DNA of 64,000 bases from the NCBI GenBank assembly GCA_021783135.1, contig JAJXUE010000006.1:10416-74415 (forward strand), read 5' to 3'. A model generated the notes under the pieces. That model was not told the origin of the DNA and ran no database searches. It saw only the letters and a program-made list of their open reading frames with translations. Both the position numbers and the translations under genes were made by a program. Shown here piece after piece: positions 2,655-45,836 of this stretch. The first letter of the stretch is position 1, and each line of letters opens with the position of its first letter. Source of the stretch: Bacillota bacterium (GTDB lineage Bacteria; Bacillota; Desulfitobacteriia; Desulfitobacteriales; JAJXUE01).

Positions 2655-3068
2655 TTACAAGTTACTCAGGGATAACTGTCCAAAGATGACTAAATCTTGC
2701 AGATTATTATCGATCACCCCTTGAACGATGGCTAAGTCCACCTTTTGGTAATTATGAACTGCAATATTGCGAAAACCTACCATACCTTTTAAGCGCCGAG
2801 CTAAGTCCTCACTTATTACCTGACCGGCAGTTAATAAATCAAAGGCGTCACGACTGTTTTGCGGAATACCAAGGCCCTTAATGGCAACGAAGTGCATAGC
2901 TAAGTCGATGCTTGCCTCACAAGCTCTTTGGATATTCAAAATAATTGAGTCCTGCCGGGTAAGGTTTTTGAGATTTGCCGGGTCTCCGGCGTACTCTTGC
3001 TGTATCCTTTGTAAACATCGTTCGATAATGGCAACTTTGTTGTAGACAATGTCATCGACCATATACAC
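2655..3068 (-). CDS. hepT: HepT-like HEPN (DUF86) RNase toxin of a type VII toxin-antitoxin pair
   Basis: 137-aa ORF with the Rx4H HEPN motif in the context FRNIAVHNY. It overlaps the upstream nucleotidyltransferase gene by 17 nt. Confidence 0.85.
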   Translation of the reverse strand: MYMVDDIVYNKVAIIERCLQRIQQEYAGDPANLKNLTRQDSIILNIQRACEASIDLAMHFVAIKGLGIPQNSRDAFDLLTAGQVISEDLARRLKGMVGFRNIAVHNYQKVDLAIVQGVIDNNLQDLVIFGQLSLSNL

Positions 3069-3462
3069 TCCCCCTTGCCGCGATTAGGCGCATAATTTCC
3101 GCTCTTTCCTCATTAAGTAAAGCATATTCTTTGAAAGCGCGTACGCGAAAATTTTGCAATAGCTCAGTACTGTCAGAATAGACTACCTCTCCTTTGCCAA
3201 GGATTTGAGCTTTTAATACGGTAGATGCTTGCTTTAAATCAACGAGATCTATCTCACGACCACACAGCGCGGCTAGGGCTTGGGCCGTTGCAAACACTTG
3301 ATACTCTGTGGCTTTGATGTCGCTCAAAAAAGCTAAATCGATGTCACTGTCTGCCCGAAAAACTCCTTGAGCACCTGAACCAAAGAGGATAATTAAATGA
3401 GCATTAATCTCCTTAATCAGGTGCTGTCTAATTATGTCAATAGTTTTTGCGTTAAGATTCAC
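3052..3462 (-). CDS. mntA: MntA-like minimal nucleotidyltransferase antitoxin
   Basis: 136-aa ORF with a GSGAQG...SDIDLAF (GSx10DxD) nucleotidyltransferase motif. GTG start preceded by GAGAGGAGA. Translationally coupled to hepT. Confidence 0.85.
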   Translation of the reverse strand: MNLNAKTIDIIRQHLIKEINAHLIILFGSGAQGVFRADSDIDLAFLSDIKATEYQVFATAQALAALCGREIDLVDLKQASTVLKAQILGKGEVVYSDSTELLQNFRVRAFKEYALLNEERAEIMRLIAARGSVYGR

Positions 3463-5472: not shown

Positions 5473-6234
5473 TTAAACTGAAAAGGAAGCCGTGACTTTA
5501 GCGTAAGCTTCGCTAAACTTGGCCTCTGCAATTGTTTTATGCCGCAGGTAAGTGGCGAAGTATTCCCAGGAGGCTGCTTCGTCGAGCAACCCATCGGGTG
5601 TAAGGATGGAACTGAAGGTTTTGTTTTTAGAGTGCTGGGAGCCAAACAAGCGTAACGATACGATCTTGTAGGAGCGGGTGTCAGGGTAGAGATTGAACTT
5701 TATTTTGTGGTAATCATAGCCACTCTCTGACAATGTGAGCATCGTTTGGGCTGCAATGCGCAGCATAAACTGGTACAAACGATTATTATTGACTGAACTC
5801 GACAATCTGCACCAGACATGATACCCTCTGCCACTGGCGACGATTAATGGCTCACAGCCCAGTTCACTGAGCTGCTGCCTGATGGCGCGAACAGCAAAGC
5901 TCATTTCGGGAATTACGACAGTGTTGTCCGTCTTATAGTTGTTGTCCAGATTAAAACAAAACAGATTGTTAGCATAAGTGTCAAAGTACAGGCACACATT
6001 GCATTCTTGGGCGATATGCGCTGCCAATAGTTCGTCCATACGGTACGGCGGGATAGCGATAATTTTGTATTTGTGGAGTACGCCGGAGGCAGTTAACTCG
6101 CCGTACTCCAGGCTGGCCCCGCCCGCCAGTAATTTTGTCAAATAAGCAAAACCATACCTGTCGGTTTCTATCTTAGCTTGGTTTTTGGGCAATCCGCTGT
6201 AGAATTCTTGCAGTAAGCTTAGCTTTCCAGCCAT
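5473..6234 (-). CDS. PriS/archaeo-eukaryotic primase (AEP)-like protein with a variant motif I
   Basis: 253 aa. ASGRGYHVW matches AEP motif II (SGxRGxHxW). D185...LRLFGSQHSK matches motif III. FNLDNNY sits where PriS has FDIDxxDY. Its ATG overlaps the upstream gene by 16 nt. Confidence 0.55.
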   Translation of the reverse strand: MAGKLSLLQEFYSGLPKNQAKIETDRYGFAYLTKLLAGGASLEYGELTASGVLHKYKIIAIPPYRMDELLAAHIAQECNVCLYFDTYANNLFCFNLDNNYKTDNTVVIPEMSFAVRAIRQQLSELGCEPLIVASGRGYHVWCRLSSSVNNNRLYQFMLRIAAQTMLTLSESGYDYHKIKFNLYPDTRSYKIVSLRLFGSQHSKNKTFSSILTPDGLLDEAASWEYFATYLRHKTIAEAKFSEAYAKVTASFSV

Positions 6235-6794
6235 TGTTTTACCTCATCAAATCTGCTAAATCCCTTGGCACTAACGGCTGGCAGGAATTGGTGTTTCGCC
6301 ATGATTGGGTAGTATACATTTACACCATAGTGTCCACCGCAAACTATATTAAACACTGCGTCGTCCACAAGGTGCTCAATCCCCCACAGTTTACAGAACA
6401 CTATTTTGTTTTTAGCCATAAACAAGTAATCAAAAGGAATGTCGTTATCCCTGAGCCAGTTAATAGTACTTGCTTGGGAACGGCGCAGATCGCGGTGGGT
6501 GCAAATAATAATTTGCCACCCACTTTTGTTTAACCATTGCATAAATTCGACCCCATCGGTGCGCGCCTGGGTGAACTGATAGCACTGTCCATAAATTTGA
6601 TTTTGAAAAAAGGCATATTCCGTACTAAGTAAATCACTTTGCTCCGGTAGCCCACTGCGCAATCTATTCAGATAGCGATTAAAGGTTTCCTCTGTAAAGG
6701 CATAAGTGTCGTTATACCTAAAAACGGTGTTTTGCACAGTCGCTGTAAAATCATTTAAGGTGTCGTCTAGATCAATTGCGATAATTTTGTTTAT
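6219..6794 (-). CDS. HAD-superfamily hydrolase, 5'(3')-deoxyribonucleotidase (NT5C)-like; non-canonical start inferred
   Basis: The tabulated ORF starts at a GTG at 6737. The in-frame upstream sequence encodes NKIIAIDLDDTLNDF, the HAD DxDxT catalytic motif. There is no ATG/GTG/TTG between the in-frame TAA (6831-6833) and the motif. AAAGGAG at 6804-6810 is followed by ATA at 6794. Confidence 0.6.
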   Translation of the reverse strand: MNKIIAIDLDDTLNDFTATVQNTVFRYNDTYAFTEETFNRYLNRLRSGLPEQSDLLSTEYAFFQNQIYGQCYQFTQARTDGVEFMQWLNKSGWQIIICTHRDLRRSQASTINWLRDNDIPFDYLFMAKNKIVFCKLWGIEHLVDDAVFNIVCGGHYGVNVYYPIMAKHQFLPAVSAKGFSRFDEVKQWLES

Positions 6795-6869: not shown

Positions 6870-8531
6870 CTATTCTGCGAGCCGGCCAAGGCTTGCTCGT
6901 ACCAGCAGGCGCATGCAAACCCAGTAATTGCGTTCCGAACGGGAGGGTGCGTTATTTATTCTAGAGCGGCACTCTTGCTCGGAGAACCACCAATCACAAC
7001 CTAGTTTGCCGCGCTCAAGGTTTCTGGTTATCTCAGCAATTATTTGTGAACTCCAGTTTTTACGTTGCGTATAAGCTAGGACGCGGTCAGCCAAGGCTTG
7101 GTAAGTGGGATGAAGAAAGGTATGAGTATCCTGATCATAGGCCAAGTCAAGCAGGGGAACTACCCCTGACATGTCACGCGAAATATCAGCTAACAAGTCC
7201 TGTTCCTCATTGGAGGAAGCGATATATAGGTAATAAAGCTTAGCCGTATGTTTTTCACCTGAATTGCGTAGGATGCGACCCAGCCTCTGGATGCGTTGTC
7301 GGTTACTGCTACTGGAGGAAGCTATAATACCGATATCGGTTGCAGGCACATTGAGGCCTTCATCTAGGGCGCGGCAGCTTACCAGAATGCGAATTTGCGC
7401 AGTCTGATATTGGCGCAGGACTTCTTTTCTTGTCCACTCGTCCATGCCGGAGTGATAACGTCCTACTTGTCCAGGAAATAGGAGCTGTAACTCTGCATAG
7501 ATCATATTAGCCGTGACAATTCTTTCGCTAAAAACCAAAACTTTTGAACTCAGCGGTAGCTGGGTGAGTAGATCTTTGACACAGCTTATCCGCGCTTCCG
7601 CCCGGTAGACCAGATCTTTGCGTTTGGTGGACAGGATGAGTACAGAACGAGCTAGGGAAGCAATTGTGTCATCCTCTGAATCTTGGGCTAAGTTCTCCAA
7701 AGTGGCAAAAAAACGTTGTTTACTTAACCCATTGAGAAATGAACAGCGACGTAGAAGGTATTCTAGGACGTGGGTCAGTTGTTCGCTAAGGTCCCAATAT
7801 TGCTCCGCTTCAACTGGGGTAAATTGTAGTTTAAGATTAAAGATGGCAAAAGTACTAATGATTTTGGCGTTCAAGGCTTCGCTGAAACCATATTTAAAAA
7901 TCTCAGTTCCCAGTGCAGGCACCAGTTTTTCGTTAGAGGCAGCAGTTTCCGGTGTGGCAGATAACCCAAGGGCATAGTAATTGGCGGTGTTACGAGTTAA
8001 GTAGGACATAAAATTAAAGATGCGCGAATTTTCGGGGCTGCTATAGCGATGGCATTCGTCAGCAATCAGCAGGACAGGGCTACCTTGCTGAAAGTCGTGT
8101 AGTAGATGCTGCGGTAAAGTGTAGCGGGCCGAATTTACGACATAAATCATATATTTGCGGGTTGGGAGGTCTTTGTGTGTTCCACAATAAATTCCAATGT
8201 CAGATTTGGCAACAGTGAGATCCTGCTGGATGCTTTGTAACCACTGATTGGCTAAAAAAACTTTGGGTACGATGATTTTGATTTTTAAGGCGGGTGTCTG
8301 CTCAGCCCGTAATTCATATTCCAACCTGGCAATGGCGCCTAGGGCTAGGATGGTTTTGCCTGCTCCGGTAACTACATTGACAATGCCTTTTTTCTGGTTG
8401 TGAAACCAGATATTCAAACATTCCTTCTGCCAAGGGAAGAGCTGTTTGTTTAGTAGGGCATATGCGTTAGAATTGGCTTTGTCGGCACCGGCCGGAATGT
8501 GCTTGTACATAAAAGTCATACCTTTTCTCAC
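6870..8531 (-). CDS. superfamily 2 DECH-box helicase (type III restriction Res / XPB-like core) with a roughly 110-aa C-terminal extension
   Basis: 553 aa. Motif I VTGAGKT, motif II LIADECHRY, motif III LSATPE, motif VI QRIQRLGRILR. The start is ambiguous (GTG 8531, ATG 8519 or ATG 8510). Confidence 0.85.
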   Translation of the reverse strand: MRKGMTFMYKHIPAGADKANSNAYALLNKQLFPWQKECLNIWFHNQKKGIVNVVTGAGKTILALGAIARLEYELRAEQTPALKIKIIVPKVFLANQWLQSIQQDLTVAKSDIGIYCGTHKDLPTRKYMIYVVNSARYTLPQHLLHDFQQGSPVLLIADECHRYSSPENSRIFNFMSYLTRNTANYYALGLSATPETAASNEKLVPALGTEIFKYGFSEALNAKIISTFAIFNLKLQFTPVEAEQYWDLSEQLTHVLEYLLRRCSFLNGLSKQRFFATLENLAQDSEDDTIASLARSVLILSTKRKDLVYRAEARISCVKDLLTQLPLSSKVLVFSERIVTANMIYAELQLLFPGQVGRYHSGMDEWTRKEVLRQYQTAQIRILVSCRALDEGLNVPATDIGIIASSSSSNRQRIQRLGRILRNSGEKHTAKLYYLYIASSNEEQDLLADISRDMSGVVPLLDLAYDQDTHTFLHPTYQALADRVLAYTQRKNWSSQIIAEITRNLERGKLGCDWWFSEQECRSRINNAPSRSERNYWVCMRLLVRASLGRLAE

Positions 8532-8692: not shown

Positions 8693-9481
8693 ATGCCAAA
8701 TTATGAAGATTTGTATAAGAACATGGCGGTTGGCGAAAAGGAACTTAAGGATAAGCTTAACAATCAGCAAAAGCTGTTTAAGAGCTTGAGCAAAAGTCTG
8801 GCCAAGGGTGACCTTAAGGGCTGGAATAAAGATTTAGTTGCAATGCGAGATCACATGAAAGAACAAGAAATCTTGCTGGAGGGAATGCAGAAGCAGGTTG
8901 ACGAATTTGGAATTCGTGCGTATGTAGAAAATGGCGACTTTGTGGAACAAATGCTGGACTATTGTGCTCGGCTGGAGGTGGATGTAAAAGGAGAGTATCC
9001 CATGTATGAGATGTTTCCTTTTCGGGTCAGGATTGACAGCGAAAATCTAGATTTATATCTTGATCGTAAGCGTGTCCAGTGCTTGCGTCCATTGGCCTTG
9101 GTGCAAGATGTGAAGGCTGCTCAGGATAAATTATTAAAGGCTGCTTTTGATCCAGGTGGCTTTATTAAAGAACTGGCGGTAGCTTATGATTTGACACTGT
9201 TAAAACAACAACACCAGACCCAAACAGCGGTTACAAAAGTAGGGGATATTTATTTAAAGAGTTTATACACTCTCTTAACCCCTATGCGCCGCTTTCGCAA
9301 GGAGTATGACCTACAGAGTTTCGCGTTCGATTTGGCTCGACTTTATGCTTCAGAGCTGCGTGCCACAGAGGATGGGCGACAGTTTCAGTTTGGTCCCAGT
9401 CGCAATATTAACAAAGCCATCCGTATCCTTGATAAGGATGGTAAGGAACAGTATCTGGCTACAATTAGGTTTTTTGAATAG
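8693..9481 (+). CDS. hypothetical protein, first gene of the divergent ATPase operon
   Basis: 262 aa. AAAGGAG RBS 7 nt before the ATG. The N-terminal ~70 aa are coiled-coil-like and K/E/Q rich. I recognise no catalytic motif. Confidence 0.7.
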   Translation: MPNYEDLYKNMAVGEKELKDKLNNQQKLFKSLSKSLAKGDLKGWNKDLVAMRDHMKEQEILLEGMQKQVDEFGIRAYVENGDFVEQMLDYCARLEVDVKGEYPMYEMFPFRVRIDSENLDLYLDRKRVQCLRPLALVQDVKAAQDKLLKAAFDPGGFIKELAVAYDLTLLKQQHQTQTAVTKVGDIYLKSLYTLLTPMRRFRKEYDLQSFAFDLARLYASELRATEDGRQFQFGPSRNINKAIRILDKDGKEQYLATIRFFE

Positions 9482-9492
9482 GGGGGATTACA

Positions 9493-10713
9493 TTGGAAAA
9501 CGCTGCTTTAGCCGTTGCCCGCTTGCGAGAGGGACTGCCTCCGGGTAATCGCGAGATCCTACAAGAAATATCAGTCGGCTGTGATTTTTTGCTGGATTTC
9601 TGGCGTGATAAATATTTTGAGAGCTATTTGGATAAGGGTGGTAGCAAAATAAAGTTCTTGACAGGTCGTATGGGAAGTGGAAAAACTCACTTTCTCGAGA
9701 TGTTAGCGTTGGAAACGGAAAAAATGGGCTATATCCCTATTACTCTTTCAGCACGGGACTTTTGGATTCATGATTTCAAGGAAATCTATACTGCAATATT
9801 GCGTCAGGTCAAGCTTTTGGAGCGGTTGCAGTTATGTAGCCGCGAGATAGTTCGGCAGTTGGGTTATGAGCCTGAGGATATGCCTGAGGACATAAGTTTT
9901 GCCGATTATTTGTCCAGCCAAGGAAGGCTTGATCCATTAACCAAACGGGAAATAAGGGAGCAGTTGGAAAAACAATTTCTTGCTAATCCCTTGCTAGACA
10001 ATAATTTTGCCTTGGCCTGTGCTATGTTGACTGGAGGTATCCTAGGGCACCCAACATTAGAAGATGCCAGTCGCACGCTATTGCTTCAGTGGTTGGAAGG
10101 GAGCCGGGAAACTAAAATGTCCTCATTGCGTCGGTTGGGCTTGTCGCCGAGCAAAATCACGAAATACAATGCCAGGCATATGCTGCGTTCCTTGGTGGAG
10201 GTTTGTCATCTGGCAGGCTACAAGGGTCTGGTCATCGCCATTGATAATCTGGAAATTCTAGCCGGTGCTGAAAGCGAGGAAGCACTACGTTATACGCGTT
10301 TGAAACGTGAAGATGCGTATGAAAGTATCCGTGAGTTGATTGATGAAATTGATACCCTAAAGCACACTATGTTTATTTTTTCCTTTGATCGCAGTCTGAT
10401 GGATGATGATTCCAAAGGTCTAAAATCTTATCAAGCCTTGTGGATGCGCATTCAGAATGAAATTGAAGGTTCCCGTTTTAATCGTTTCGCTGACATTGTG
10501 GATATTGATCGGCTGATTGATGAAATCTATACACCGGAAAATATTGTGCAAATATCCACTCGTCTAGCCCAAGTCATTAATCGCCTTGCTCAAGGTGCTA
10601 CTCCTATTAATCTCAGCACAGCGGAAGAGCTGTATGCCAAGTCTAGGTTTGGCAAGATGTCTTTACTCAGGCGGGTAGTGCTTTCTACCTTACAGGAAGG
10701 AGCGGAACAATAA
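9493..10713 (+). CDS. P-loop NTPase, DUF2791/BrxD-like (paralogue 1; Walker B is DN rather than DE)
   Basis: 406 aa. N-terminal ARLREGLPP, then Walker A GRMGSGKTH, then Walker B-like GLVIAIDNLE. TTG start 11 nt after the upstream stop. Confidence 0.7.
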   Translation: MENAALAVARLREGLPPGNREILQEISVGCDFLLDFWRDKYFESYLDKGGSKIKFLTGRMGSGKTHFLEMLALETEKMGYIPITLSARDFWIHDFKEIYTAILRQVKLLERLQLCSREIVRQLGYEPEDMPEDISFADYLSSQGRLDPLTKREIREQLEKQFLANPLLDNNFALACAMLTGGILGHPTLEDASRTLLLQWLEGSRETKMSSLRRLGLSPSKITKYNARHMLRSLVEVCHLAGYKGLVIAIDNLEILAGAESEEALRYTRLKREDAYESIRELIDEIDTLKHTMFIFSFDRSLMDDDSKGLKSYQALWMRIQNEIEGSRFNRFADIVDIDRLIDEIYTPENIVQISTRLAQVINRLAQGATPINLSTAEELYAKSRFGKMSLLRRVVLSTLQEGAEQ

Positions 10714-11942
10714 TGGATTTTGCAGCTCAGAGGGTTGTGGAGGCATTGCGTTCTGGAGTGTCTTCCCGAGCAGTGGGACATTACTTTTCATCAGCTCGTC
10801 CAGAATTAATGAAGCAGATTTCCCATAAGCTTGATGTGGTGCGCGAGACTGGGGTATCTGGTGGGATGGTGATTTCGGGCAAATATGGCGAGGGTAAGAC
10901 CCACCTTTTGAATACAGTGTTTAATATGGCCCACAGCAACAATATGGTCGTCAGTTTGATCTCGCTGAGTAAAGAAACCCCGTTCGACAAATTGTTTCTT
11001 GTTTATCAGAAACTGGTCAGCAATACTTATCTGCCACAACGTCTGCAACCTGGATTTCAACATATGTTGCAAGATATCACCCCTAATAATCCTATCGCTC
11101 AGGACTTGTTATCTTTTACAGGTAAGCACTTGGAGACGGACAAACTTTTCTTTGTGTTACGTTCCTTTCTTAATGTCGATGATCCTGATGATAAATATTT
11201 GCTGATGGCAGATTTAGAGGGCGACTTCATCAATACTGCCTTGCTGCGCCAGATCTATAAGAGGATTTTTGCGCAACCAGTACGCTATGCAGTACCCTTC
11301 AGCAAAACGCGTCACAGTATGGACTATTTTAGCATGTTGAGTCATCTGTTTAAACAGATGGGTTTCAATGGTTGGGTCATCCTCTTTGATGAGACGGAAT
11401 TGGTTGGTCGTCTTGGCAAAAAGGCCCGACTTAACGCTTACAATAATATGGCAGCATTTTTGTTTCCGGAGCGGTATTCGCGCTTGGAGTCTACTTTTAC
11501 GATGTTTGCTATGGGAGCATCCTATCAGGAGGATGTAATAGAGTCCAAGCATGAGTTTGAGAACGTCACCACGACGTATGTGGATCGTGCCCAGCGTGAA
11601 CCTGTTGAAAAGGTGCTGCAGCAAATTGTTGGCGCGCCTCAGTTGCAACCACTAAATCAAACTGAAATTTTGACAGTGCTGGAACAGGTACAGATTTTTC
11701 ACGGCCAAGCCTATGACTGGCAGCCAAATCTGGATGTACGTGAAGTGTTAAAAGCCTCGGAAAATCGGGGGTATTTGTTGAGAACTAAAATCCGAGCTGC
11801 CGTAGAATTGCTGGATCAGCTTTACCAGTACGGACAGGCTGGAGACATTCGGATCAATGAACTGGGAGAACCACAGTATCAAGATGAGGAACTGCCTTCG
11901 CTGGATGAATGTATGGGCGAGGAAGATTTAGATTTAGCATAA
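10713..11942 (+). CDS. P-loop NTPase, DUF2791/BrxD-like (paralogue 2; canonical Walker B)
   Basis: 409 aa. N-terminal VEALRSGVSS, Walker A GKYGEGKTH, Walker B GWVILFDETE. Its ATG shares one nucleotide with the upstream TAA (TAATG). Confidence 0.7.
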   Translation: MDFAAQRVVEALRSGVSSRAVGHYFSSARPELMKQISHKLDVVRETGVSGGMVISGKYGEGKTHLLNTVFNMAHSNNMVVSLISLSKETPFDKLFLVYQKLVSNTYLPQRLQPGFQHMLQDITPNNPIAQDLLSFTGKHLETDKLFFVLRSFLNVDDPDDKYLLMADLEGDFINTALLRQIYKRIFAQPVRYAVPFSKTRHSMDYFSMLSHLFKQMGFNGWVILFDETELVGRLGKKARLNAYNNMAAFLFPERYSRLESTFTMFAMGASYQEDVIESKHEFENVTTTYVDRAQREPVEKVLQQIVGAPQLQPLNQTEILTVLEQVQIFHGQAYDWQPNLDVREVLKASENRGYLLRTKIRAAVELLDQLYQYGQAGDIRINELGEPQYQDEELPSLDECMGEEDLDLA

Positions 11943-12018
11943 GAGGGTAGATAACACGACTAGCTAATACCCTCAATTTTTGTCGTGCACGGAGAACAGA
12001 AAGGGACTTGAATTTACT

Positions 12019-18555: not shown

Positions 18556-18655
18556 TTAAAAACGTGACGGGAGCCCATGCAATTGGGCTGAGAGGGTGGT
18601 TAGAGTACCACCGACCGCACCTGATCTGGATAATGCCAGCGGAGGGAAGATGCAA
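18556..18655 (+). promoter_or_regulatory. TPP (thiamine pyrophosphate, THI-box) riboswitch
   Basis: Contains GGGAGCC...GGGCTGAGAG...ACCGACCGCACCTGATCTGGATAATGCCAGCGGAGGGAAG. CTGAGA and ACCTGATCTGGATAATGCCAGCG are hallmark conserved TPP-aptamer segments. An intrinsic terminator and thiamine-related genes follow. Confidence 0.85.
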
Positions 18656-18671
18656 ACAACGATGTTAAGTT

Positions 18672-18846: not shown

Positions 18847-19140
18847 ATGGGTAAAATTATGATGGCTTTTCAGGTGTTGCCGAAAGTCGAAGATGACCGA
18901 CTGTTCGAAGTGGTAGACGAAGCTATCGCAGTGGTAGCAGCCAGCGGGGTAAAGTATGAAGTGGGGCCAATGGAAACAACGATGGAAGGTGAACCGGATC
19001 AATTGTGGGCTATTATCCGTGAGGCACAGGATGCCTGTGTTAAAGCCGGGGCTTCTCGCGTTATGACGTATATCAAGCTGGATTATAACCCGGGACGGAC
19101 GACAATTGATGAAAAGATTCGTAAATATCGGGAGAAGTAA
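18847..19140 (+). CDS. MTH1187/YkoF-family (DUF77) thiamine-binding protein
   Basis: 97 aa with the pattern QVLP...V.YEVGPMETTMEG typical of this family. It lies downstream of the TPP riboswitch. Confidence 0.75.
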   Translation: MGKIMMAFQVLPKVEDDRLFEVVDEAIAVVAASGVKYEVGPMETTMEGEPDQLWAIIREAQDACVKAGASRVMTYIKLDYNPGRTTIDEKIRKYREK

Positions 19141-19144
19141 GGGT

Positions 19145-19927
19145 ATGCCACTAAGATCGGGGCGTTCTAAGCTAAAATGGCGGGAAAGTATTCCGACCCT
19201 GGTGTTTCTAGTTCTCTGTTTAGTGGTTTGGCAGGTCAGCGTAGATTATTTCAAGTTGCCGCTCTGGCTCGTGCCTTCGCCGTCAGCAGTATTAACTGCC
19301 TTCTGGCGTACACGGGATCTGCTTTGGGCGCATACCTTGACAACTATTTTGGAAACAACCACGGGGTTTATGTTGGCGATAGCTTTGGGCTTAGTGGCGG
19401 GTATGGTTATGGTGCTGTCGCCTTTGGCGAAGCGCATGTTTTATCCATTGCTGATTGTGTCCCAGACGGTACCGCTGATTGCAGTGGCGCCGCTGCTCAT
19501 CCTATGGCTGGGCTACGGCTTGCTGCCGAAGATTGTTACCGTGGTCTTAGTATGCTTTTTCCCAATTACGGTTAGCCTGATTGAAGGCTTGGAGGTGAGC
19601 GACACTGATTTGCTCAATCTCCTTACAAGTATGGGGGCTACTCGCTGGCAAATCTTATATATGATCCGTTGGCCCAACGCTCTGCCCTCCCTCTTTGCCG
19701 GGCTGAAGATTGCGGCGACGTACAGTGTGATGGGAGCTGTGATTGGAGAATGGCTTGGTGCCAGTTCGGGATTAGGCGTTTATTTAACACTTTCGTCACA
19801 TTCGTTTCGGACTGATCAAGTCTTTGCCGCTATTATAGCGATCACCTTGCTCAGTCTCGTGTACTTTGCCCTAATTACGGGAATTAGACGGCTGGCCTTG
19901 CCTTGGTTACATACTGAACAGGATTAG
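19145..19927 (+). CDS. thiX: ABC transporter permease (NitT/TauT family; ThiX-like HMP/thiamine-precursor uptake)
   Basis: Multi-transmembrane ORF. I chose the ATG at 19145, just after the upstream stop. Context is riboswitch plus NMT1/THI5-like SBP plus ATPase. Confidence 0.75.
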   Translation: MPLRSGRSKLKWRESIPTLVFLVLCLVVWQVSVDYFKLPLWLVPSPSAVLTAFWRTRDLLWAHTLTTILETTTGFMLAIALGLVAGMVMVLSPLAKRMFYPLLIVSQTVPLIAVAPLLILWLGYGLLPKIVTVVLVCFFPITVSLIEGLEVSDTDLLNLLTSMGATRWQILYMIRWPNALPSLFAGLKIAATYSVMGAVIGEWLGASSGLGVYLTLSSHSFRTDQVFAAIIAITLLSLVYFALITGIRRLALPWLHTEQD

Positions 19928-20022
19928 ACAAACAGCATACTAATAATTTTAGCTAGTTCTAGCTAGAACTAGCGAGAGATTGATGCGGGATTAGCGATGA
20001 GGATTGAAAAGGAGAATGAAAT

Positions 20023-21063
20023 ATGCAGAGTGTGCGTGTCAGAAAAATTTTGAGTGTTACTTTGGTTGCGAGCTTATTCGCTCTTGTTTTGTTAACGGGC
20101 TGTGGCACAAACGCCCAGAATTCTACAGCAACAAATGAGACCAAAACGCCTTCCCAACCCGATAAGGTGACGATTATGCTGGATTGGACACCTAATACCA
20201 ATCATACCGGCCTTTATGTGGCCAAAGACAAGGGGTACTTTACTAAGGAAGGCTTGGATGTACAGATTGTTCCGCCCTCCAGTCAAGGCACGGTGGAGCA
20301 ACTAGTTGCCACAGGTAAGGCGGATTTTGGCATTAGTGCCCAGGAACAGGTAACCGATGCTCGTGTCCAAGGTTTGCCCTTAGTCTCCATTGCGACTATC
20401 TTGCAGCATAATACCTCTGGCTTTGCTTCCTTAGCGAGCAAAAATATTCGGACGGCCAAGGACTTTGCCGGCAAGACTTATGGTGGGTGGGGGCTTCCGT
20501 CCGAAGCTGCAACCATCAAAGCAGCCATGGAAAAGGAAAATGCTGATTTCAACAAAGTAAAAATGATTAATATTGGTGACGCTGATCCTATCATTAGCAT
20601 GACCAAGGGCGATATCGATTTCACTTGGATTTTTTACGGTTGGGAAGGGATCCAGGCCAAATTGGCCGGACAGCCGCTTAACATGATCTGGGTAAAGGAT
20701 ATTAACCCTGCCTTAGATGATTACACTCCAGTCATCGTCACGAGTGAGAAGATGATTCAAGCCAAACCGGACGTAGTTCGGCGCTTCCTGCAGGCTGTCA
20801 GTGAAGGCTACCAGTACGCAATTAAAAACCCGGCTGATGCGGCTAATATCCTAATCAAGAATGCACCGGAAGAGGACCCGACCTTGATTAGGCAAAGCCA
20901 AACCTGGCTAAGTCCGCAATATCAGGCTGACGCCGCGCAATGGGGCGTGCAAAAGGACTCAGTCTGGCACGATTATGCCCAATGGATGTACGATCATAAA
21001 TTGCTGGATAAAATGATCGACACTAGCAAGGCGTTTACAAATAACTTTTTGCCAAAGGGTTAA
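20023..21063 (+). CDS. thiY: NMT1/THI5-like substrate-binding lipoprotein (ThiY-like)
   Basis: 346 aa. Lipobox LLTGC. LDWTPNTNHTGLYVA is typical of NMT1/THI5-type binding proteins. Confidence 0.8.
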   Translation: MQSVRVRKILSVTLVASLFALVLLTGCGTNAQNSTATNETKTPSQPDKVTIMLDWTPNTNHTGLYVAKDKGYFTKEGLDVQIVPPSSQGTVEQLVATGKADFGISAQEQVTDARVQGLPLVSIATILQHNTSGFASLASKNIRTAKDFAGKTYGGWGLPSEAATIKAAMEKENADFNKVKMINIGDADPIISMTKGDIDFTWIFYGWEGIQAKLAGQPLNMIWVKDINPALDDYTPVIVTSEKMIQAKPDVVRRFLQAVSEGYQYAIKNPADAANILIKNAPEEDPTLIRQSQTWLSPQYQADAAQWGVQKDSVWHDYAQWMYDHKLLDKMIDTSKAFTNNFLPKG

Positions 21064-21067
21064 GACT

Positions 21068-21841
21068 ATGACGTTGGAATTGAGAGATGTGTCCTTGTCG
21101 TATCGAGGGACTGGAACAGCTGCGCTGGATGTGTTGGCGGATATTAATCTTAAGATAGCAACGGGTACGTTTGTCTCCATCATTGGACCTTCCGGCTGTG
21201 GCAAAAGTTCAATTTGCAACTTAATTGCCGGGGTGGAAAAATCAGATCAAGGGGATATCTTGCTTGATACTCGCTCGATTCTCGGGCTCCCCGGTCAAGT
21301 TGGCTATATGCCGCAGAAGGATTTGCTTTTGCCGTGGCGAACGTTGCTAGATAATGTAGCTCTCGGTGGCGATATCCGACGCGAGGATAAACGAAAGTCG
21401 AGAGAGGCGGCACGAAGTTGGCTGGAACGGTTTGGTTTAGGTGAGTTTACGAAGCATTACCCGCACCAACTTTCCGGCGGCATGCGGCAAAGGGGAGCGC
21501 TGCTGCGTACCTTTCTCTTTGGTCAGACTACGTTGATTTTGGATGAGCCTTTTGGCGCACTAGATGCTTTGACGCGACGCGAAATGCAGGCATGGCTCTT
21601 GGACGTGTGGAGCCAAAGCAACCCGACAGTTCTCTTCATTACTCATGATATAGAAGAAGCAATGCTGTTGTCGGATGAAGTTGTTGTCTTAAGCCAAAGA
21701 CCAGCCCGTATATTAGAGAGGATCACGGTTCCGTTTGCACGGCCCCGTGATCCGGATATTCTTCTTTCCAGCCAAGCGCTGGTAGTAAAAAAACGGTTAC
21801 TGGATTTGCTGAGTGAAATCGGCGGCACACGGGCACACTAA
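21068..21841 (+). CDS. thiZ: ABC transporter ATP-binding protein (ThiZ-like)
   Basis: Walker A GPSGCGKSS, signature LSGGMRQR, Walker B LILDEP. Confidence 0.85.
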   Translation: MTLELRDVSLSYRGTGTAALDVLADINLKIATGTFVSIIGPSGCGKSSICNLIAGVEKSDQGDILLDTRSILGLPGQVGYMPQKDLLLPWRTLLDNVALGGDIRREDKRKSREAARSWLERFGLGEFTKHYPHQLSGGMRQRGALLRTFLFGQTTLILDEPFGALDALTRREMQAWLLDVWSQSNPTVLFITHDIEEAMLLSDEVVVLSQRPARILERITVPFARPRDPDILLSSQALVVKKRLLDLLSEIGGTRAH

Positions 21842-40459: not shown

Positions 40460-42697
40460 TTAAACAAAAGCTAAATGTGGGCTGATTTCTCCGGTATAAT
40501 ATAACGCCAATCGATGGAGGGCCCTCGTGCAGGCAACGTACAAAAGTTTTTGGTCAAACTCGCTGGTATAATTTTCTTGCGTGACATTGTAAACAAGTGC
40601 CACGTCAAATTCGAGACCCTTAGCCAGATAGGAAGGTATTACCAGGACTCCTTTGTCAAGGGATGAGTCCTCGCTTGACAGAAGGTTAATGTCAGCAAGT
40701 CCCTTTAACTGGGCGTAGACCTGTTGCGCTTCGCGCTGGGTTTTGCAAATGACGGCGATTGACTCATAGCCCTGAGAGAGGTAGTCGGCAATGTCCGCAA
40801 CAATTTGCTGCGCCAGTGCTGCCGAATTTTCCCTACAGACAATCACAGGTTTGGCTTCGTGACGCTCAAAGAGGGGCAATGTTTGTTTTACCCCCAGCAC
40901 TCTTAGCGCAAACTCGTTTGTTTCGTAAGAAGAGCGATAGCCGGTATTGAGGAAGAGCTTAAACGATCTGTTTTTTGCTAAAATTTGCTCGACTTCATCA
41001 TACAACGAAAGGTCGGCGTGCTTAGCTATGGCCTGGTTAACGTCACCTAATACTGTGTAGCGGGCCTGTTTGAACAACAACTTAAATACTTCATAGTGCA
41101 GGGGATAGTAATCCTGGGCCTCGTCGATTACCACATGCTTGATTTCCGCGAAGCCGCCGTCGCCTTCAACTTTTAACTTTAAATATAAAAGTGGTGCGCA
41201 GTCCTCAAACGCTACGTGGCCTTGCTGCAGTGCTTGATGGGTAATGGCAATTATCTGAGCGATATTCTCAGGTAAATTCAGACCGAGGCATAGCTTGTTA
41301 AACAGCTCACTATTGGCGAAAAGCGCTCGATACATGTCCAGGTAATCAACGGTGGTGAATTGTTGGAGACGCTGCTCAAAGCGCTTAGCATCTTTCAGAG
41401 CGAGCAGGCGGCTAAAGGATTTGACTTCAAGCTCATGCCCTTCACTTTTCTGCACTATTGCTTCCAGGCGAGTGAGTCGCTGTTTTTGCAGCGGGTGTAC
41501 CTTATCCAACACCATGTTGGCAACTCTTTGCAGCTGTTTGGCCATAGGTATCCCCACTGTATTCTTGAGAAACCGGTTTTTGAGTTGCTGCCTGGTCATT
41601 ATAATTGCACCATTGTAATAGATGTCCTGGAAGGGAATCATATGCCTGGCATAGTGGCGGAGAAATCGCTCGAGGACTTGAACGAAAGTTCTGGAGCCTT
41701 TAAAATCAATGGCCTGTCTTTTTAGGGTGGTTGCCTTGGAAGCTTGGCCGAAAATCAAGCCTTCGAGTTGGGAGTTGCGCTCCTCTGGGATAAATTTGCC
41801 GTCGAAATGCTGCAGAGCGATAGTCTCAAAAGTAGTCTGTTTGACGTTTTCTTCCCCGAGTTCGGGTAGTACGGTGGAAATGTATTTACTGAAAATAGCA
41901 TTGGGTGAAATGATGAGAAAGTTAGTGGAATTGAGGTTGGAACTTAAACCATGATAAAGGAGGAAGGCAATGCGGTGTAACGCAATCGATGTTTTGCCGC
42001 TGCCGGCTACGCCTTGGACCATCAGTAATTCATTTTCCGTATCGCGAATAACGACATCCTGCTCTTTTTGGATAGTTTCGACTATTTGCCGCATCTGAGG
42101 CGAAGAGTTATGACTCAATACTTCCTGGAGCAGATCATCGTTAATAGTGAGGCTGCAATCAAAAAAGTATTTTAGTTCTGAATGCTGAATTTTATACTGT
42201 CGCTTAAGTAAAATTTCGCAGGAAATAGTCCCAATTGGGGCTGTGTAAAAACCTTTCCCTAGTTCAAAACGGTAAAATAGACTTGAGATGGGAGCACGCC
42301 AATCATAAACATAAACATGATGGGTTTGTCGATCCATGATATTAGATAGACCAATGTAAATTTTCTCCGGGTCAGGGGATTCGTCATCCGCAAGGTCAAT
42401 TCGCGCGAAATAGGGTGAATCTAAAATCCTTTTGTATGTCTCAGCGTGTTTTTGCATGTTGCTAAAGCCCAGGGTCTTAGCGTTAAGTTCTGTTAGGTAT
42501 TGGTTCATTTCGGTTAGCCGGTCAAAGTCATTGACAAAGTGGACGGTATTTTCCCACATGTCTCGCCGGAACTCTATTAGCTTGGTTTTTTGTTCGGCTA
42601 GGGTACTAGTCAGGGTGACGAGTTCACTTTTGATGAAGTTCACGGTGGTATTAAGGTAGTTAGTTTCTTCGTGCAGATTGCTCAAATAGTCGTCCAT
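40460..42697 (-). CDS. helD: HelD-type UvrD-like helicase (helicase IV; RNA polymerase recycling factor)
   Basis: 745 aa. Long N-terminal coiled-coil arm, Walker A GVAGSGKTS, VIDEAQD, C-terminal UvrD-like domain (GLEFD...YVACTRA). Confidence 0.8.
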   Translation of the reverse strand: MDDYLSNLHEETNYLNTTVNFIKSELVTLTSTLAEQKTKLIEFRRDMWENTVHFVNDFDRLTEMNQYLTELNAKTLGFSNMQKHAETYKRILDSPYFARIDLADDESPDPEKIYIGLSNIMDRQTHHVYVYDWRAPISSLFYRFELGKGFYTAPIGTISCEILLKRQYKIQHSELKYFFDCSLTINDDLLQEVLSHNSSPQMRQIVETIQKEQDVVIRDTENELLMVQGVAGSGKTSIALHRIAFLLYHGLSSNLNSTNFLIISPNAIFSKYISTVLPELGEENVKQTTFETIALQHFDGKFIPEERNSQLEGLIFGQASKATTLKRQAIDFKGSRTFVQVLERFLRHYARHMIPFQDIYYNGAIIMTRQQLKNRFLKNTVGIPMAKQLQRVANMVLDKVHPLQKQRLTRLEAIVQKSEGHELEVKSFSRLLALKDAKRFEQRLQQFTTVDYLDMYRALFANSELFNKLCLGLNLPENIAQIIAITHQALQQGHVAFEDCAPLLYLKLKVEGDGGFAEIKHVVIDEAQDYYPLHYEVFKLLFKQARYTVLGDVNQAIAKHADLSLYDEVEQILAKNRSFKLFLNTGYRSSYETNEFALRVLGVKQTLPLFERHEAKPVIVCRENSAALAQQIVADIADYLSQGYESIAVICKTQREAQQVYAQLKGLADINLLSSEDSSLDKGVLVIPSYLAKGLEFDVALVYNVTQENYTSEFDQKLLYVACTRALHRLALYYTGEISPHLAFV

Positions 42698-42736
42698 TAA
42701 TATCTCCCTCTCTCCCTAGCCTCTCCAGACCCCTGC

Positions 42737-43555
42737 TTAGCCAATCGGTGTTTTTGCTGAGAACCAGTCGATTAAGCGGCGGGCAATACTGATCTTGTCT
42801 GGGATTAAGGGCAGGTTGTCGGCCTTGTACCACTGGGCATCGATGATTTCGGCTGGATCTAGCTTGAGATCCCCCCCGGCGTACTCTGCGGTAAAGCCAA
42901 CCATTAATGAGTGCGGGAAAGGCCAGGGCTGACTGCCGAAGTAGCGGATGTCTTTAATTTCGAGTCCGACTTCTTCTTTAACTTCACGCGCCACGCATTC
43001 CTCTAAGGTCTCGCCCGGTTCGACAAAACCGGCCAGGACGCTGTACATGGGGACGGCGAACAGAGTACCGCGGGCCAGCAAAATTTCGTTGCCACGGGTG
43101 ATAGCTACTATGATAGCGGGGGAGATGACGGGATAGCTAAGCAGGCCACAGTTCGGGCAAAGCTTAGCCCGCTCACCGGTTTTGACTGTCGTAGTACTGC
43201 CGCATCGGCCGCAGAATTGGTGGGTTTTATCCCATTCGATTATTTGTCGCGCTCTTCCGGCCAAATAAAACCATTCATCTGCAACCAGGCTAAACAACTG
43301 CCTAAGTCCCAAAAGTTCCAGGTCGGTTGGTATAGCTGTGTCGTCGGCCAGCAGGGCAGCAAAAGCTGGGTACCCGTCTAACGTGCCAAGATAATAAACG
43401 CTGTGAGTAGATATCCCGTATTCAGCTAAGGTTGCTACTAAAGGTGGACTTACACGGCCAGCCTCTTTAACTATCAATAGCTTGTCTTGACAATAGGCAA
43501 ACCAGTACGCCTGCGGGTAACTGGTTGGAGGTATTATTCCCGGTATAAACTTCAT
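42737..43555 (-). CDS. nudC: NAD+ diphosphatase (NADH pyrophosphatase) NudC
   Basis: Zinc ribbon CGRCGS...CPNCG followed by the Nudix box GFVEPGETLEECVAREVKEEVG. ATG at 43555 preceded by AAGGAAG. Confidence 0.85.
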   Translation of the reverse strand: MKFIPGIIPPTSYPQAYWFAYCQDKLLIVKEAGRVSPPLVATLAEYGISTHSVYYLGTLDGYPAFAALLADDTAIPTDLELLGLRQLFSLVADEWFYLAGRARQIIEWDKTHQFCGRCGSTTTVKTGERAKLCPNCGLLSYPVISPAIIVAITRGNEILLARGTLFAVPMYSVLAGFVEPGETLEECVAREVKEEVGLEIKDIRYFGSQPWPFPHSLMVGFTAEYAGGDLKLDPAEIIDAQWYKADNLPLIPDKISIARRLIDWFSAKTPIG

Positions 43556-43736
43556 CAATGCTTCCTTCTTAATTGCGAGTATTTCCATGCTGATTGTAAG
43601 TCCGGAGCGGTGATTTGACAAGGGTGTGATACGATAGGTAGAAATATGGCAAAAGGTTTTAGCAGGTTATTTAAGTATGCATGTGGAAGAATCCAATAGT
43701 TCTTTACCGGTAAACTAGAACTAAGGTGTGGTTGTA

Positions 43737-45836
43737 ATGTTAGAAGAGGCCTTGTTACTTTTAAAAAAATATTATGGTTATCCGGCTTTTCGACCGGGCC
43801 AGCAAAAGATTATCACCAGTATCCTAGAGGGTCGTGATACCCTTGGCATCATGCCGACAGGCGGCGGCAAATCGATTTGCTATCAGATTCCGGCGTTGAT
43901 GCTGCCGGGGACAACCCTAGTCATATCACCTTTAATTTCACTCATGAAAGATCAGGTCGATGCCTTAACCAGTTTAGGTATTCCCGCTGCCTTTATCAAC
44001 AGTTCTTTAGCCCCGCGGGAAGTGCGGGAACGTATCTTGGAGGCTGCCCAAGGTCAATATAAGCTCCTATATGTCGCGCCGGAGAGACTGGAATCTGAGC
44101 TTTTCCGCAGCCAATTGTACTCCCTGACCATCCCTCTAGTGGCGGTTGATGAGGCCCATTGTGTGTCGCAGTGGGGCCATGATTTTCGGCCGAGCTACCT
44201 GTCCATAGCGCAATTGATTGCGGATTTGCCGCAACGGCCGGTGCTAACCGCTTTTACCGCTACTGCCACCGAAGCTGTGGTAGTGGATATCGGCAATAAT
44301 CTGTATTTACGCAACCCTAACCTTTACCTAACCGGGTTTGACCGGGCTAATCTTGCTTACACAGTGTTAAGGGGTGTCGACAAGCGCGAATTTCTGCTCA
44401 AATATTTGCAGGAGAATCGGCAACAGTCGGGGATTATTTATGCTGCCACCCGCAAGGAGGTTGATCAGCTCCATCAGCTCTTAACGCAAAAGGGGTTTAG
44501 TGTGGGACGTTACCATGCCGGGTTAAGCGATGTGGAACGTAGCCGCGGTCAGGAGTCCTTTTTGTACGACGATTTGCGAATTATGGTGGCCACTAATGCT
44601 TTTGGTATGGGTATCGACAAATCCAACGTGCGCTTTGTGATCCACTATAACATGCCCAAGAACATGGAGGCCTACTATCAAGAAGCTGGTCGGGCCGGGC
44701 GGGACGGCGAACCTAGTGAGTGTATATTGCTTTTCGGCGCCCAAGATATTCAGGTGCAGAAGTTTCTCATCGAACAAGGTCAAACGGCACCGGACCGTAA
44801 GGCGGGCGAGTACAAAAAATTACAGGTCATGGCTGACTATTGCCATACCACCCGCTGCCTGCGGGAGTTTATTTTGCAATACTTCGGCGAGCAAACCGAA
44901 ACGGATAATTGTGCTAACTGCAGTAATTGCAATAACGACGGGGAGTTAATAGATATTACAGTTGTGGCCCAGAAGATCTTTTCCTGTATTAAACGGATGC
45001 GGGAAATGTTTGGGCTTACCTTGGTAGCTGAGGTGCTGAAGGGTTCCAACAGTAAAAAGGTGCTGCACAATAGGTTTGACACTTTATCGACTTTTGGGCT
45101 GCTGAAGGAGTATACCTTAAAAGAAATAAGTGACCTGATCAAGGTTTTGGCGGCTGAGGGGTATATTAAATTGACGGAAGGTCAGTATCCAGTGGCCAAA
45201 TTGGAAAGTAAAGCTTTAGCTGTTCTCAAAAACGAGGTTAAGGTTTGGCAAAGGGTTATGCATCCGAAGGAAAGGGCAGTTGACAATACCTTATTTGAAC
45301 TTTTGCGACAGCTGCGCAAGGAATTGTCGCAACAAGCTAAAATTCCGCCCTACATGGTTTTTACCGATAGTACCCTGCGCGAAATGAGTCAGACCCTACC
45401 TCTGGATGAGCAGGCCCTGTTAGCTGTTGGCGGGGTAGGAGAGGTTAAGCTTCAGGCCTATGGCAAACGCTGCCTGGAACTAATTCGTAGCTATGCCGCT
45501 CAACAAAGCACGGCAAAACACGTAGTTAAGGCGAGTGAACAAGCAAGTCATTTTCTGACCCTTGAGCTTTTTCGCGAGGGCAAATCATTACGCGAAATCG
45601 CTCGCGAGCGCAACTTAAAGTTACTCACTGTGCAAGACCACCTTATCCGCTGCAGCTTAGAGGGGGATGTGGTGAATTGGGACGCCCTGATCCAAACGGA
45701 GTATGAGCAGCTGATTTTAAGCAAAGCGGCAGAGCTGGGGGCGGAAAAGTTAAAGCCTCTGAAAGAGGCTTTGCCAGCAGAGGTAGATTATTTTACCATC
45801 AAAGCCGTACTGTGTAAGCACAACTCAGCGGGGTAA
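43737..45836 (+). CDS. recQ: ATP-dependent DNA helicase RecQ
   Basis: GYPAFRPGQ, MPTGGGKS, DEAHCVSQWGHDFRP, Zn-binding Cys cluster (C..C...CANCSNC), RQC and C-terminal HRDC regions. Confidence 0.92.
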   Translation: MLEEALLLLKKYYGYPAFRPGQQKIITSILEGRDTLGIMPTGGGKSICYQIPALMLPGTTLVISPLISLMKDQVDALTSLGIPAAFINSSLAPREVRERILEAAQGQYKLLYVAPERLESELFRSQLYSLTIPLVAVDEAHCVSQWGHDFRPSYLSIAQLIADLPQRPVLTAFTATATEAVVVDIGNNLYLRNPNLYLTGFDRANLAYTVLRGVDKREFLLKYLQENRQQSGIIYAATRKEVDQLHQLLTQKGFSVGRYHAGLSDVERSRGQESFLYDDLRIMVATNAFGMGIDKSNVRFVIHYNMPKNMEAYYQEAGRAGRDGEPSECILLFGAQDIQVQKFLIEQGQTAPDRKAGEYKKLQVMADYCHTTRCLREFILQYFGEQTETDNCANCSNCNNDGELIDITVVAQKIFSCIKRMREMFGLTLVAEVLKGSNSKKVLHNRFDTLSTFGLLKEYTLKEISDLIKVLAAEGYIKLTEGQYPVAKLESKALAVLKNEVKVWQRVMHPKERAVDNTLFELLRQLRKELSQQAKIPPYMVFTDSTLREMSQTLPLDEQALLAVGGVGEVKLQAYGKRCLELIRSYAAQQSTAKHVVKASEQASHFLTLELFREGKSLREIARERNLKLLTVQDHLIRCSLEGDVVNWDALIQTEYEQLILSKAAELGAEKLKPLKEALPAEVDYFTIKAVLCKHNSAG

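Follow-up and report, generated by a model that had tools for sequence, protein, structure and literature searches.

We analyzed a 64,000-nucleotide (nt) stretch of contig JAJXUE010000006.1 from a Bacillota bacterium (hereafter the window), in which two adjacent genes, designated A and B, encode BrxD-like AAA+ proteins of 406 and 409 amino acids (aa), respectively. The stretch derives from a metagenome-assembled genome of Peptococcaceae. The initial annotation had described the two genes as joined through a TAATG sequence, and the sequence confirms that the stop codon of A overlaps the start codon of B. A is preceded by a gene for a 262-aa protein (u262), and a superfamily 2 (SF2) helicase gene lies divergently from this trio. 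The four genes form an undescribed cassette that contains two diverged ATPases and a new protein family, u262. The coordinates of the features are summarized in Table 1. An AAGGAG sequence is located 8 nt 5′ of the ATG codon of u262, a GGGGGG run lies 6 nt 5′ of the TTG start codon of A, and a GGAG sequence was read 10 nt upstream of the A/B junction. The terminator-like hairpin after B has a folding energy of −10.2 kcal/mol and a weak z value of −1.4, and it was overlooked by the consensus terminator scan because its loop is 18 nt long.

Table 1. Features of the window, with positions counted from its first nucleotide.
Feature	Position	Strand	Description
A	9493–10713	+	TTG start, 406 aa, BrxD-like AAA+ protein
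B	10713–11942	+	ATG start, 409 aa, BrxD-like AAA+ protein
TAATG junction	10711–10715	+	Stop codon TAA of A (10711–10713) overlapping start codon ATG of B (10713–10715)
Walker A of A	9664–9687	+	G58–T65, GRMGSGKT (GRMGSGKTH, residues 58–66)
Walker B strand of A	10228–10254	+	L246–E254, LVIAIDNLE (GLVIAIDNLE, residues 245–254); N252 codon, 10246–10248
R319 of A	10447–10449	+	Proposed trans-acting arginine finger, in the invariant block KSYQALWMRIQNE
Walker A of B	10878–10901	+	G56–T63, GKYGEGKT (GKYGEGKTH, residues 56–64)
Walker B of B	11373–11399	+	W221–E229, WVILFDETE (GWVILFDETE, residues 220–229); E227 codon, 11391–11393
u262	8693–9481	+	262 aa; N-terminal coiled-coil-like region and C-terminal domain; first gene of the trio
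SF2 helicase	6870–8531	−	553 aa; ResIII and Helicase_C; XPB/PbeA-like core; divergent from the trio
Terminator-like hairpin	11943–11981	+	Directly 3′ of B; GAGGGUA...UACCCUC, then AAUUUUUG
AEP primase-polymerase-like gene	5473–6234	−	253 aa; SGRGYHVW; overlaps the 172-aa gene, both downstream of the helicase
172-aa gene	Within 5473–6737		Similar to the phosphatase part of phage polynucleotide kinases
HepT and MNT genes	2655–3462	−	137 aa and 136 aa; overlapping toxin-antitoxin genes
Thiamine pyrophosphate riboswitch	18557–18665	+	RF00059, 57.4 bits
ABC transporter operon	19106–21841		Permease, NMT1/THI5-like binding protein, ATPase
UvrD-like helicase and 294-aa ORF	40460–43621	−	Helicase of 745 aa with an N-terminal extension of approximately 200 aa
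RecQ gene	43728–45836		Close to the UvrD-like helicase
Cohesin proteins	47338–53540	+	DUF6359/DUF5689/OB-fold/cohesin protein of 1571 aa, then a cohesin/CWB2 cell-wall-binding protein

Both A and B matched PF10923 (BrxC_BrxD, formerly DUF2791) above the Pfam gathering threshold of 22.2 bits; A scored 110.3 bits across residues 11–373, and B scored 86.6 bits split over two stretches. The AlphaFold2 models of A (predicted local distance difference test, 89; predicted template modeling score, 0.88) and B (80 and 0.72, respectively) contain similar P-loop cores; in each, strand 2 is followed by a very large helical insert, and helices form a lid at the C-terminus, in agreement with the common architecture proposed initially. 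The description of the two genes as paralogs, however, holds in a deep sense only. BLASTP aligned A and B only over their two Walker motif segments, A with A and B with B (E = 0.02–0.05), and a profile-profile comparison by hhalign gave 293 collinear columns with 21% identity (84% probability, E = 7.7e-6). The similarity of each protein to BrxD is no lower than that of A to B. These comparisons indicate that A and B are very old paralogs. We found 1873 relatives of A at E ≤ 0.001 among 8000 database candidates scored, and no natural A–B fusion was present among 240 listed homologs; NCBI names the two proteins only as “DUF2791 family” or “BREX system ATP-binding domain-containing”. A Foldseek search with the B model returned Cdc6/Orc1, origin recognition complex (ORC) subunits, and, weakly, the BrxC dimer 9zdx (E = 0.04). 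Around Walker A, A and B weakly resemble DnaA, DnaI, and Hda. The profile searches of the PDB with A and B were set aside, as the matches to DnaA and DnaI were at the level of Walker A only.

We counted the motif residues of A in 80 orthologous genome loci and those of B in 74 sequences, unless stated otherwise. The third core strand of the B model spans residues 221–227 and carries GWVILFDETE, the canonical Walker B motif named in the initial annotation. Its residues D226, E227, and E229 were invariant (74/74), as were Y58, G59, E60, G61, K62, and H64 in the Walker A motif of B. Regarding A, the third core strand spans residues 245–251 and ends at D251, and a search for another hhhhDE motif in the protein found none; these results identify IDNLE as the Walker B strand, as had been claimed, and the pairwise alignment agrees. 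In A, the P-loop glycines G58, G61, and G63 were each present in 80/80 loci, position 65 was invariably Ser or Thr, and D251 was conserved in 80/80 loci with 0 changes on the tree. Position 252, which corresponds to the catalytic Glu, was Asn in 45 sequences, Asp in 31, Glu in 2, Lys in 1, and Ser in 1, and it changed at least 16 times on the neighbor-joining tree of the 80 orthologs. Position 254 was Glu in 72 loci and Asp in 8. D299, which MAFFT aligned with the sensor-1 Thr of the family, was variable, and R393, in a PR motif common to BrxD and SngB, was Arg in 63/80 loci. Its counterpart in B, R357, was conserved in 74/74 sequences and is a probable sensor-2 residue.

The replacement of the catalytic Glu by Asn is thus real in the A protein of the window, but it is not a family trait, because Asn and Asp alternate across the orthologs; distant A-types even carry the standard Asp-Glu pair. 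These counts indicate that the conserved feature is a pocket of A that tolerates non-catalytic residues while the pocket of B is frozen. K64 of the A Walker A motif was Lys in 75 genome loci and Arg in 5. The Arg variant (GSGRTH) occurred in Syntrophomonas-type and related Bacillota loci (L015, L016, L018, L020, and L022). Among 120 database homologs of A, Lys was found in 100 and Arg in 20, the latter almost only with Asp or Glu at position 252 (DxE, 12; DxD, 6; NxE, 1; ExE, 1). The K64R substitution and the change at position 252 look like two alternative ways to disable one site. Since the P-loop glycines, Ser/Thr at position 65, and D251 are conserved, A probably still binds nucleotide in the clade of the window, and the bound nucleotide may serve as a regulatory input.

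Between strands 4 and 5, A contains the invariant block K311-S-Y-Q-A-L-W-M-R319-I-Q-N-E323, in which R319 was present in 80/80 orthologs with 0 changes on the tree. In the same region of B, K279 was the sole conserved basic residue and no conserved Arg was present; the B orthologs had Thr, Glu, Ala, or Ser in the corresponding column. We aligned the segment from Walker B to strand 5 of nine proteins (BrxC, BrxD, SngB, three A-types, and three B-types) using MAFFT. A single column contained the finger Arg of BrxC (KIQGRF), R319 of A (ALWMRI), and the Arg of BrxD (PLHDRI), SngB (ALQSRL), and the Aulosira A-type (ALQGRI), and the three B-types had Thr, Asp, or Glu in this column. R319 also falls in the finger column of the distant A-types in the MAFFT alignments. 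The mapping of residues was taken from this nine-member alignment instead of from hhalign comparisons of the A and B profiles with the single BrxC sequence, which lost register after Walker A or gave no significant segment. R328, in an “SRF” motif similar to box VII of DnaA, was also considered as the finger; it was only 85% conserved and lies in a low-confidence loop, and R319 is preferred by the alignment. These results indicate a complementary pattern, in which B has intact Walker A and Walker B motifs without a finger and A has a finger with a degenerate pocket.

A structural template for such a pair is available for BrxC, a member of the same Pfam family. BrxC forms an ATP-dependent asymmetric back-to-face dimer, as observed by cryo-electron microscopy in 2026, in which K78, E269, and R430 act in cis on ATP and K326/R330 of the partner subunit act in trans (PMC13326643). 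The R330E substitution blocks the self-association of BrxC, which otherwise yields dimers and possibly heptamers (PMC13326643). Moreover, the inactive BrxB can take the same face of BrxC, donating its own arginine, and thereby caps BrxC (PMC13326643).

Distant versions of the pair were surveyed in a small, seeded sample. A tblastn search of plasmids found the four-gene order on pDESTI.01 of Desulfomonile tiedjei and on a plasmid of Aulosira laxa, where the gene for a 279-aa protein comes first and is followed by those for an A-type, a B-type, and a helicase. The first gene matched u262 at E = 7e-5 in Aulosira and only at E = 0.42 in Desulfomonile, the second matched A at E = 3e-18, and the third matched B at E = 2e-11. 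The helicase was a full-length BrxHI/SngC-type protein (291–326 bits) with an end-to-end SngC match of 248–259 bits. The plasmid A-types had a normal DE motif, the B-types were also normal, and the finger Arg was present in the A-types only. The order of the u262-type, A-type, and B-type genes was kept in these 2 plasmid loci and in all four distant contigs, two of which end inside A or B. Among these contigs, the A-types of L094 and L095 had DN, and those of L091 and L092 were approximately 320 aa long, lacked Walker A (e.g., PVDGADLRS) and the lid, carried LD-I-[ST]-R where Walker B would be expected, and retained the segment ...ALQMRIWDE. A metagenome scan seeded with the L091 and L092 A-types returned 29 loci, of which the 19 that were long enough to show three genes kept the order. 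An alignment was possible for 18 distinct A-types from these loci; all were P-loop-less, without a lid and with LD-x-x-R at the Walker B site, and they kept the finger Arg wherever the column was covered. All aligned B-types from the metagenomes had G-x-F-G-x-G-K-S-H, and D-E-V-E-L where Walker B was covered; DE was kept in all distant B-types. These states of the A-types and B-types indicate that the nucleotide site of A is dispensable over evolutionary time, whereas the finger of A and the site of B are not.

A scan of one genome per species identified relatives of A in 297 of 185,579 species (approximately 0.16%), and the best 80 loci were examined. u262 preceded A in 80/80 loci, B followed A in each of the 78 loci whose contig extends beyond A, and the A/B junction overlapped by 1, 4, or 8 nt in 50/73 loci. 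The hosts of the 80 loci belong to Bacillota, Spirochaetota, and Synergistota, and the cassette as a whole is scattered over five or more phyla and also occurs on plasmids. The identity was approximately 70–80% across several Bacillota lineages (Desulfosporosinus, Syntrophomonas, and Formimonas) and 50–57% in Spirochaetota and Synergistota. Furthermore, gut Clostridia that can be cultured, such as Enterocloster clostridioformis and Blautia, carry the cassette. We found no published description of the u262-A-B cassette in the literature on DUF2791, PF10923, BrxD-like and Shango-like proteins, and tandem pairs, and neither PADLOC 2.0 nor the NCBIfam naming includes the cassette.

The u262 protein had no match in Pfam, PADLOC, NCBIfam, PHROGs, or PDB (the PDB profile search gave coiled-coil noise), and PADLOC 2.0 contains no model for it. 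A search of 1.84 billion cluster representatives assigned 566 to its family (E ≤ 0.001), nearly all of them stand-alone proteins of approximately 260 aa. The near-invariant residues are mostly aromatic, Pro, or Gly, with one Asp (D213). A PD-(D/E)xK nuclease was considered, as E106, D115, and D124-x-K126 resemble its motif in the close orthologs; these residues are unconserved in the wider family. A diverged TerB/SngA protein was also rejected, because u262 and 44 relatives gave no TerB match in Pfam at E ≤ 1 and the hhalign comparison of the u262 profile with the TerB-N protein of the Sulfitobacter Shango system gave a probability of 0.5%.

The helicase of the window matched ResIII (7.5e-20), Helicase_C (1.3e-14), and ERCC3_RAD25_C (8.7e-9) in Pfam and the XPB/Rad25-like model NF045503 (5e-19) in NCBIfam, and no nuclease domain was found in it. 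In PADLOC, the best match was PbeA, followed by DpdE and Cas3, and SngC was outside the best 25. The PbeA match covered the helicase part only, as the PbeA models align from approximately model position 250 onward. The helicase scored 141 bits against TIGR04095, the model of the Dnd/Pbe restriction helicase, for which the cutoff is 600, and no dnd or pbe genes lie nearby. By tblastn, a helicase match was found beside the trio in 68/80 loci, mostly in divergent orientation, and 63 of these matches cover >85% of the protein. The match in L035 is a 35-aa remnant. In L029, L072, and L035, the neighbors of the trio are chemotaxis, transport, or sugar-nucleotide genes, and L028 and L069, which have less flanking sequence, likewise show u262-A-B without an adjoining helicase. 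The distant locus L096 has a helicase with 31% identity after B.

The initial annotation had related the pair to BrxD and the Shango ATPase. In PADLOC and NCBIfam, both A and B indeed matched BrxD best, and A matched the PADLOC models of BrxD and SngB at 3e-21 and 1.5e-17, respectively. However, the scores against the BrxD equivalog NF033438 were 74.2 bits for A and 44.9 bits for B with a cutoff of 350, and the matches to the SngB model in PADLOC (61.8 and 42.8 bits, respectively) were both partial; a kinship with BrxD or Shango therefore describes the pair only approximately. BrxD of type 2 bacteriophage exclusion (BREX) systems is a stand-alone AAA+ protein of the ORC/Cdc6 type, with a helical insert after strand 2, an Arg finger preceding strand 5, and a bundle of helices at the C-terminus (PMC12839542). 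It is tightly linked to the helicase BrxHI, and a survey of BREX systems in 2026 proposed that it is a loader or activator (PMC12839542). BrxD is encoded by a single gene in BREX type 2, whereas the A/B pair has complementary motif losses. Moreover, the window contains no PglZ, PglX, BrxC, or PglW, its only open reading frame (ORF) encoding >1000 aa being that of the DUF6359/cohesin protein, and no BREX core genes flank the pair in the window, Formimonas, or Enterocloster loci. BrxC itself differs from A and B in that it has approximately 1200 aa with DNA-binding domains and forms a homo-oligomer, whereas A and B have approximately 400 aa, contain no extra domains, and are encoded by two genes.

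Shango consists of the TerB protein SngA, the ATPase SngB, and the DEAD/DEAH helicase SngC, and it protects Escherichia coli and Pseudomonas aeruginosa against phages (10.1101/2022.05.11.491447, 10.1101/2022.11.11.516204). The cassette resembles Shango in that PF10923 ATPase genes are accompanied by genes for an SF2 helicase and for a non-enzymatic third protein, and neither encodes a nuclease. It differs from Shango in three features: two diverged ATPases are present instead of a single SngB; the first gene, u262, does not encode a TerB protein, whereas SngA has TerB-N and TerB-C domains; and the 553-aa helicase is XPB/PbeA-like and divergent, in contrast to SngC of approximately 720 aa. The Desulfomonile and Aulosira versions do have a helicase of the SngC kind. 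The statement in the initial annotation that single-copy BrxD or Shango loci lack a tandem pair fits the two examples at hand, the Shango locus of Sulfitobacter and the BrxD-BrxHI genes of the Aulosira BREX type 2 locus. By analogy, the cassette probably works like Shango or the BrxD-BrxHI module and is a member of neither.

The flanking genes of the cassette differ between hosts. In the window, overlapping HepT and MNT nucleotidyltransferase toxin-antitoxin genes lie by the cassette. In Candidatus Formimonas warabiya, the cassette is located beside three pairs (MNT/HEPN, YafQ/RelB, and YoeB/Phd), and on pDESTI.01 it is near an AbiE toxin-antitoxin pair. On plasmid3 of Aulosira laxa (L087, 1–11539), it directly follows PglZ-BrxD-BrxHI, with which a BREX type 2 locus ends, so that the single-copy BrxD dyad and the two-ATPase version stand side by side. 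The closest named relatives of the ATPases (BrxD/SngB) and the helicase (BrxHI/SngC) are all defense components. An anti-phage role of the cassette is therefore likely, as judged from these relatives and neighbors.

Two further genes are located downstream of the helicase in the window, on the same strand as the helicase. One resembles archaeo-eukaryotic primase (AEP) primase-polymerases and matched AEP-TOTE (E = 0.002), the LigD Prim-Pol domain, and the N-terminus of the UG10 defense-associated reverse transcriptase weakly; the other encodes the 172-aa protein, with a match to PHROG 415 (3e-9). A link of the AEP-like gene to the cassette was considered and rejected, as no homolog of either gene was found in the 109 other genome and metagenome loci searched. 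In the distant loci L100 (7307–9832) and L101, the u262-A-B genes are followed by an 841-aa fusion of an AEP-TOTE primase (326 bits) with a ResIII/DEAD helicase. This fusion and the AEP-like gene of the window hint at a recurrent association of primase and helicase; the AEP domains of L100 and L101 showed no BLAST similarity to the AEP-like domain of the window.

From the gene order, the motifs and their conservation, the homologies, and the fold, we infer an A:B complex in which the finger is donated by A to B and ATP is not hydrolyzed by A, with an anti-phage role for the cassette. In this model, which we assign a probability of roughly one half, A and B would form an asymmetric AAA+ pair with one catalytic site at the core of a u262-A-B-helicase cassette, and the pair would control the helicase. 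ATP would be held in the complete pocket of B by K62, D226/E227, and the probable sensor-2 residue R357. A would dock on the ATP-bound face of B and insert R319, which would create the sole catalytically competent site. Because B has no finger, it could neither activate the pocket of A nor recruit a further subunit, and the assembly would be capped at a defined heteromer. A would thus be the finger-donating subunit, with weak or no hydrolysis, and B the catalytic subunit. The pocket of A would face the solvent or another partner and, unneeded for catalysis, would be free to decay, through Glu-to-Asn/Asp changes, with Lys-to-Arg changes in some lineages and the loss of the entire site in others. 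The A:B pair, together with u262 as an adaptor or sensor, would probably sense or load onto foreign DNA and license the helicase, as has been proposed for BrxD-BrxHI and SngB-SngC.

In ORC/Cdc6, the clamp loader replication factor C, and F1-ATPase α/β, a non-catalytic subunit binds or frames the nucleotide and gives an Arg to its catalytic neighbor. These systems are analogies only, as they share nothing with A and B beyond the AAA+/P-loop fold and have other functions and partners. The initial annotation had suggested an obligate heteromer of one ATP-hydrolyzing and one ATP-binding or regulatory subunit. The division of labor is favored by the invariant motifs of B, the near absence of the Glu in A, the finger in A alone, and the P-loop-less clade of A. 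The Asn on which it was based is not fixed, and the pair belongs to a larger cassette. The word obligate is best read as a prediction from the sequences.

Several observations weigh against the proposed model. The mapping of R319 to R330 of BrxC comes from the short-segment MAFFT alignment and a motif resemblance (QGRF vs WMRI), and the full-profile hhalign comparison with the single BrxC sequence lost register after Walker A, as noted above. In the P-loop-less clade, arginines (RLRDK) are found near the finger region of the B-types, so that the absence of a finger from B is firm for the clade of the window and the plasmid clade only. The P-loop of A is under clear purifying selection in the clade of the window, which indicates that its nucleotide site matters in some way. 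The helicase is missing beside the trio in at least L029 and L072 and reduced to a remnant in L035. Furthermore, no recognizable nuclease, toxin, or other effector was found in the cassette, the cassette of Enterocloster lies among sugar-utilization genes, and the helicase of the window resembles XPB repair helicases. Finally, approximately 39% of the A orthologs have Asp at position 252. Walker B motifs of the hhhhDD type are active in some P-loop NTPases. The acid at position 254 (Glu or Asp in 100%) could be a displaced catalytic acid, and D252 or E254 could support slow hydrolysis by A.

The last points lead to the best of the competing explanations, in which both subunits are active ATPases, A uses D252 or the conserved E254 (+3 from the Walker B Asp), and the DN motif is a mere variant. 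An acid at position 254 in 80/80 orthologs, D252 in 31/80, the invariant P-loop glycines and Ser/Thr of A, and the standard DE of the Aulosira and Desulfomonile plasmid A-types are consistent with it. However, the +3 acid shows the same conservation in B, in BrxD, and in the A-types of the plasmids, which have the canonical Glu, and this indicates that the acid has another role. Moreover, Asn, which is unable to act as a base, alternates freely with Asp at least 16 times, the K-to-R change is tolerated in Walker A, and the cassette persists in a whole clade with P-loop-less A-types. We consider activity of both subunits unlikely.

A second explanation concerns the function of the cassette, which might not be immune: an XPB-like helicase and an ORC/Cdc6-like loader pair could form an accessory module for DNA repair or replication restart. 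The XPB/Rad25 matches of the helicase, the weak resemblance of A and B to DnaA, DnaI, and Hda, the absence of an encoded nuclease or toxin, and the sugar-metabolism neighbors in Enterocloster all fit such a module. Its occurrence in approximately 0.16% of species only, yet with high identity across lineages and on plasmids, the repeated adjacency to toxin-antitoxin and BREX loci, and the defense character of all nearest named relatives are at odds with it and make a repair module somewhat less probable still. Separate homo-oligomers of A and B (rings or filaments, with, e.g., one on DNA and one on the helicase) would agree with the self-association of BrxC and with the 21% identity of A and B, which implies long functional distinctness, but they are improbable, as B, fingerless in the clade of the window, could not complete its own perfectly conserved site, A has a finger with a decaying pocket, and A and B strictly co-occur in a fixed order with overlapping stop and start codons. 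Taken together, the fingerless B, the decaying pocket of A, and this linkage of the genes point to the 1:1 co-assembly of the asymmetric A:B pair.

The window also contains features away from the cassette. The thiamine pyrophosphate riboswitch is located upstream of the operon for an ATP-binding cassette (ABC) transporter, an arrangement that represents ordinary regulation of thiamine-precursor uptake. The UvrD-like helicase gene lies beside an ORF without assigned function. The cohesin-containing proteins look like a surface-anchored nucleic-acid-binding or nuclease-like complex.

A wider interpretation, which we regard as tentative, is that the cassette is an unrecognized, widespread anti-phage or anti-plasmid system with a dedicated AAA+ heterodimer of an activator and an enzyme as its sensor or switch, in which A is a pseudo-ATPase in the making, kept only for its finger and for capping, and B is the sole motor. 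If this is true, the graded series of A-types (DE, DN/DD, and no P-loop) would show how BrxD of BREX type 2 and SngB of Shango work. BrxD and SngB are defense ATPases without a known mechanism, and the cassette would present the same ATPase split over two genes. The split allows the cis- and trans-acting residues to be predicted, with a capped dimer rather than a ring as the expected working unit. The series from canonical A-types to P-loop-less A-types that keep the finger would be a ready-made mutational experiment, and the occurrence in culturable gut Clostridia makes the cassette directly testable.

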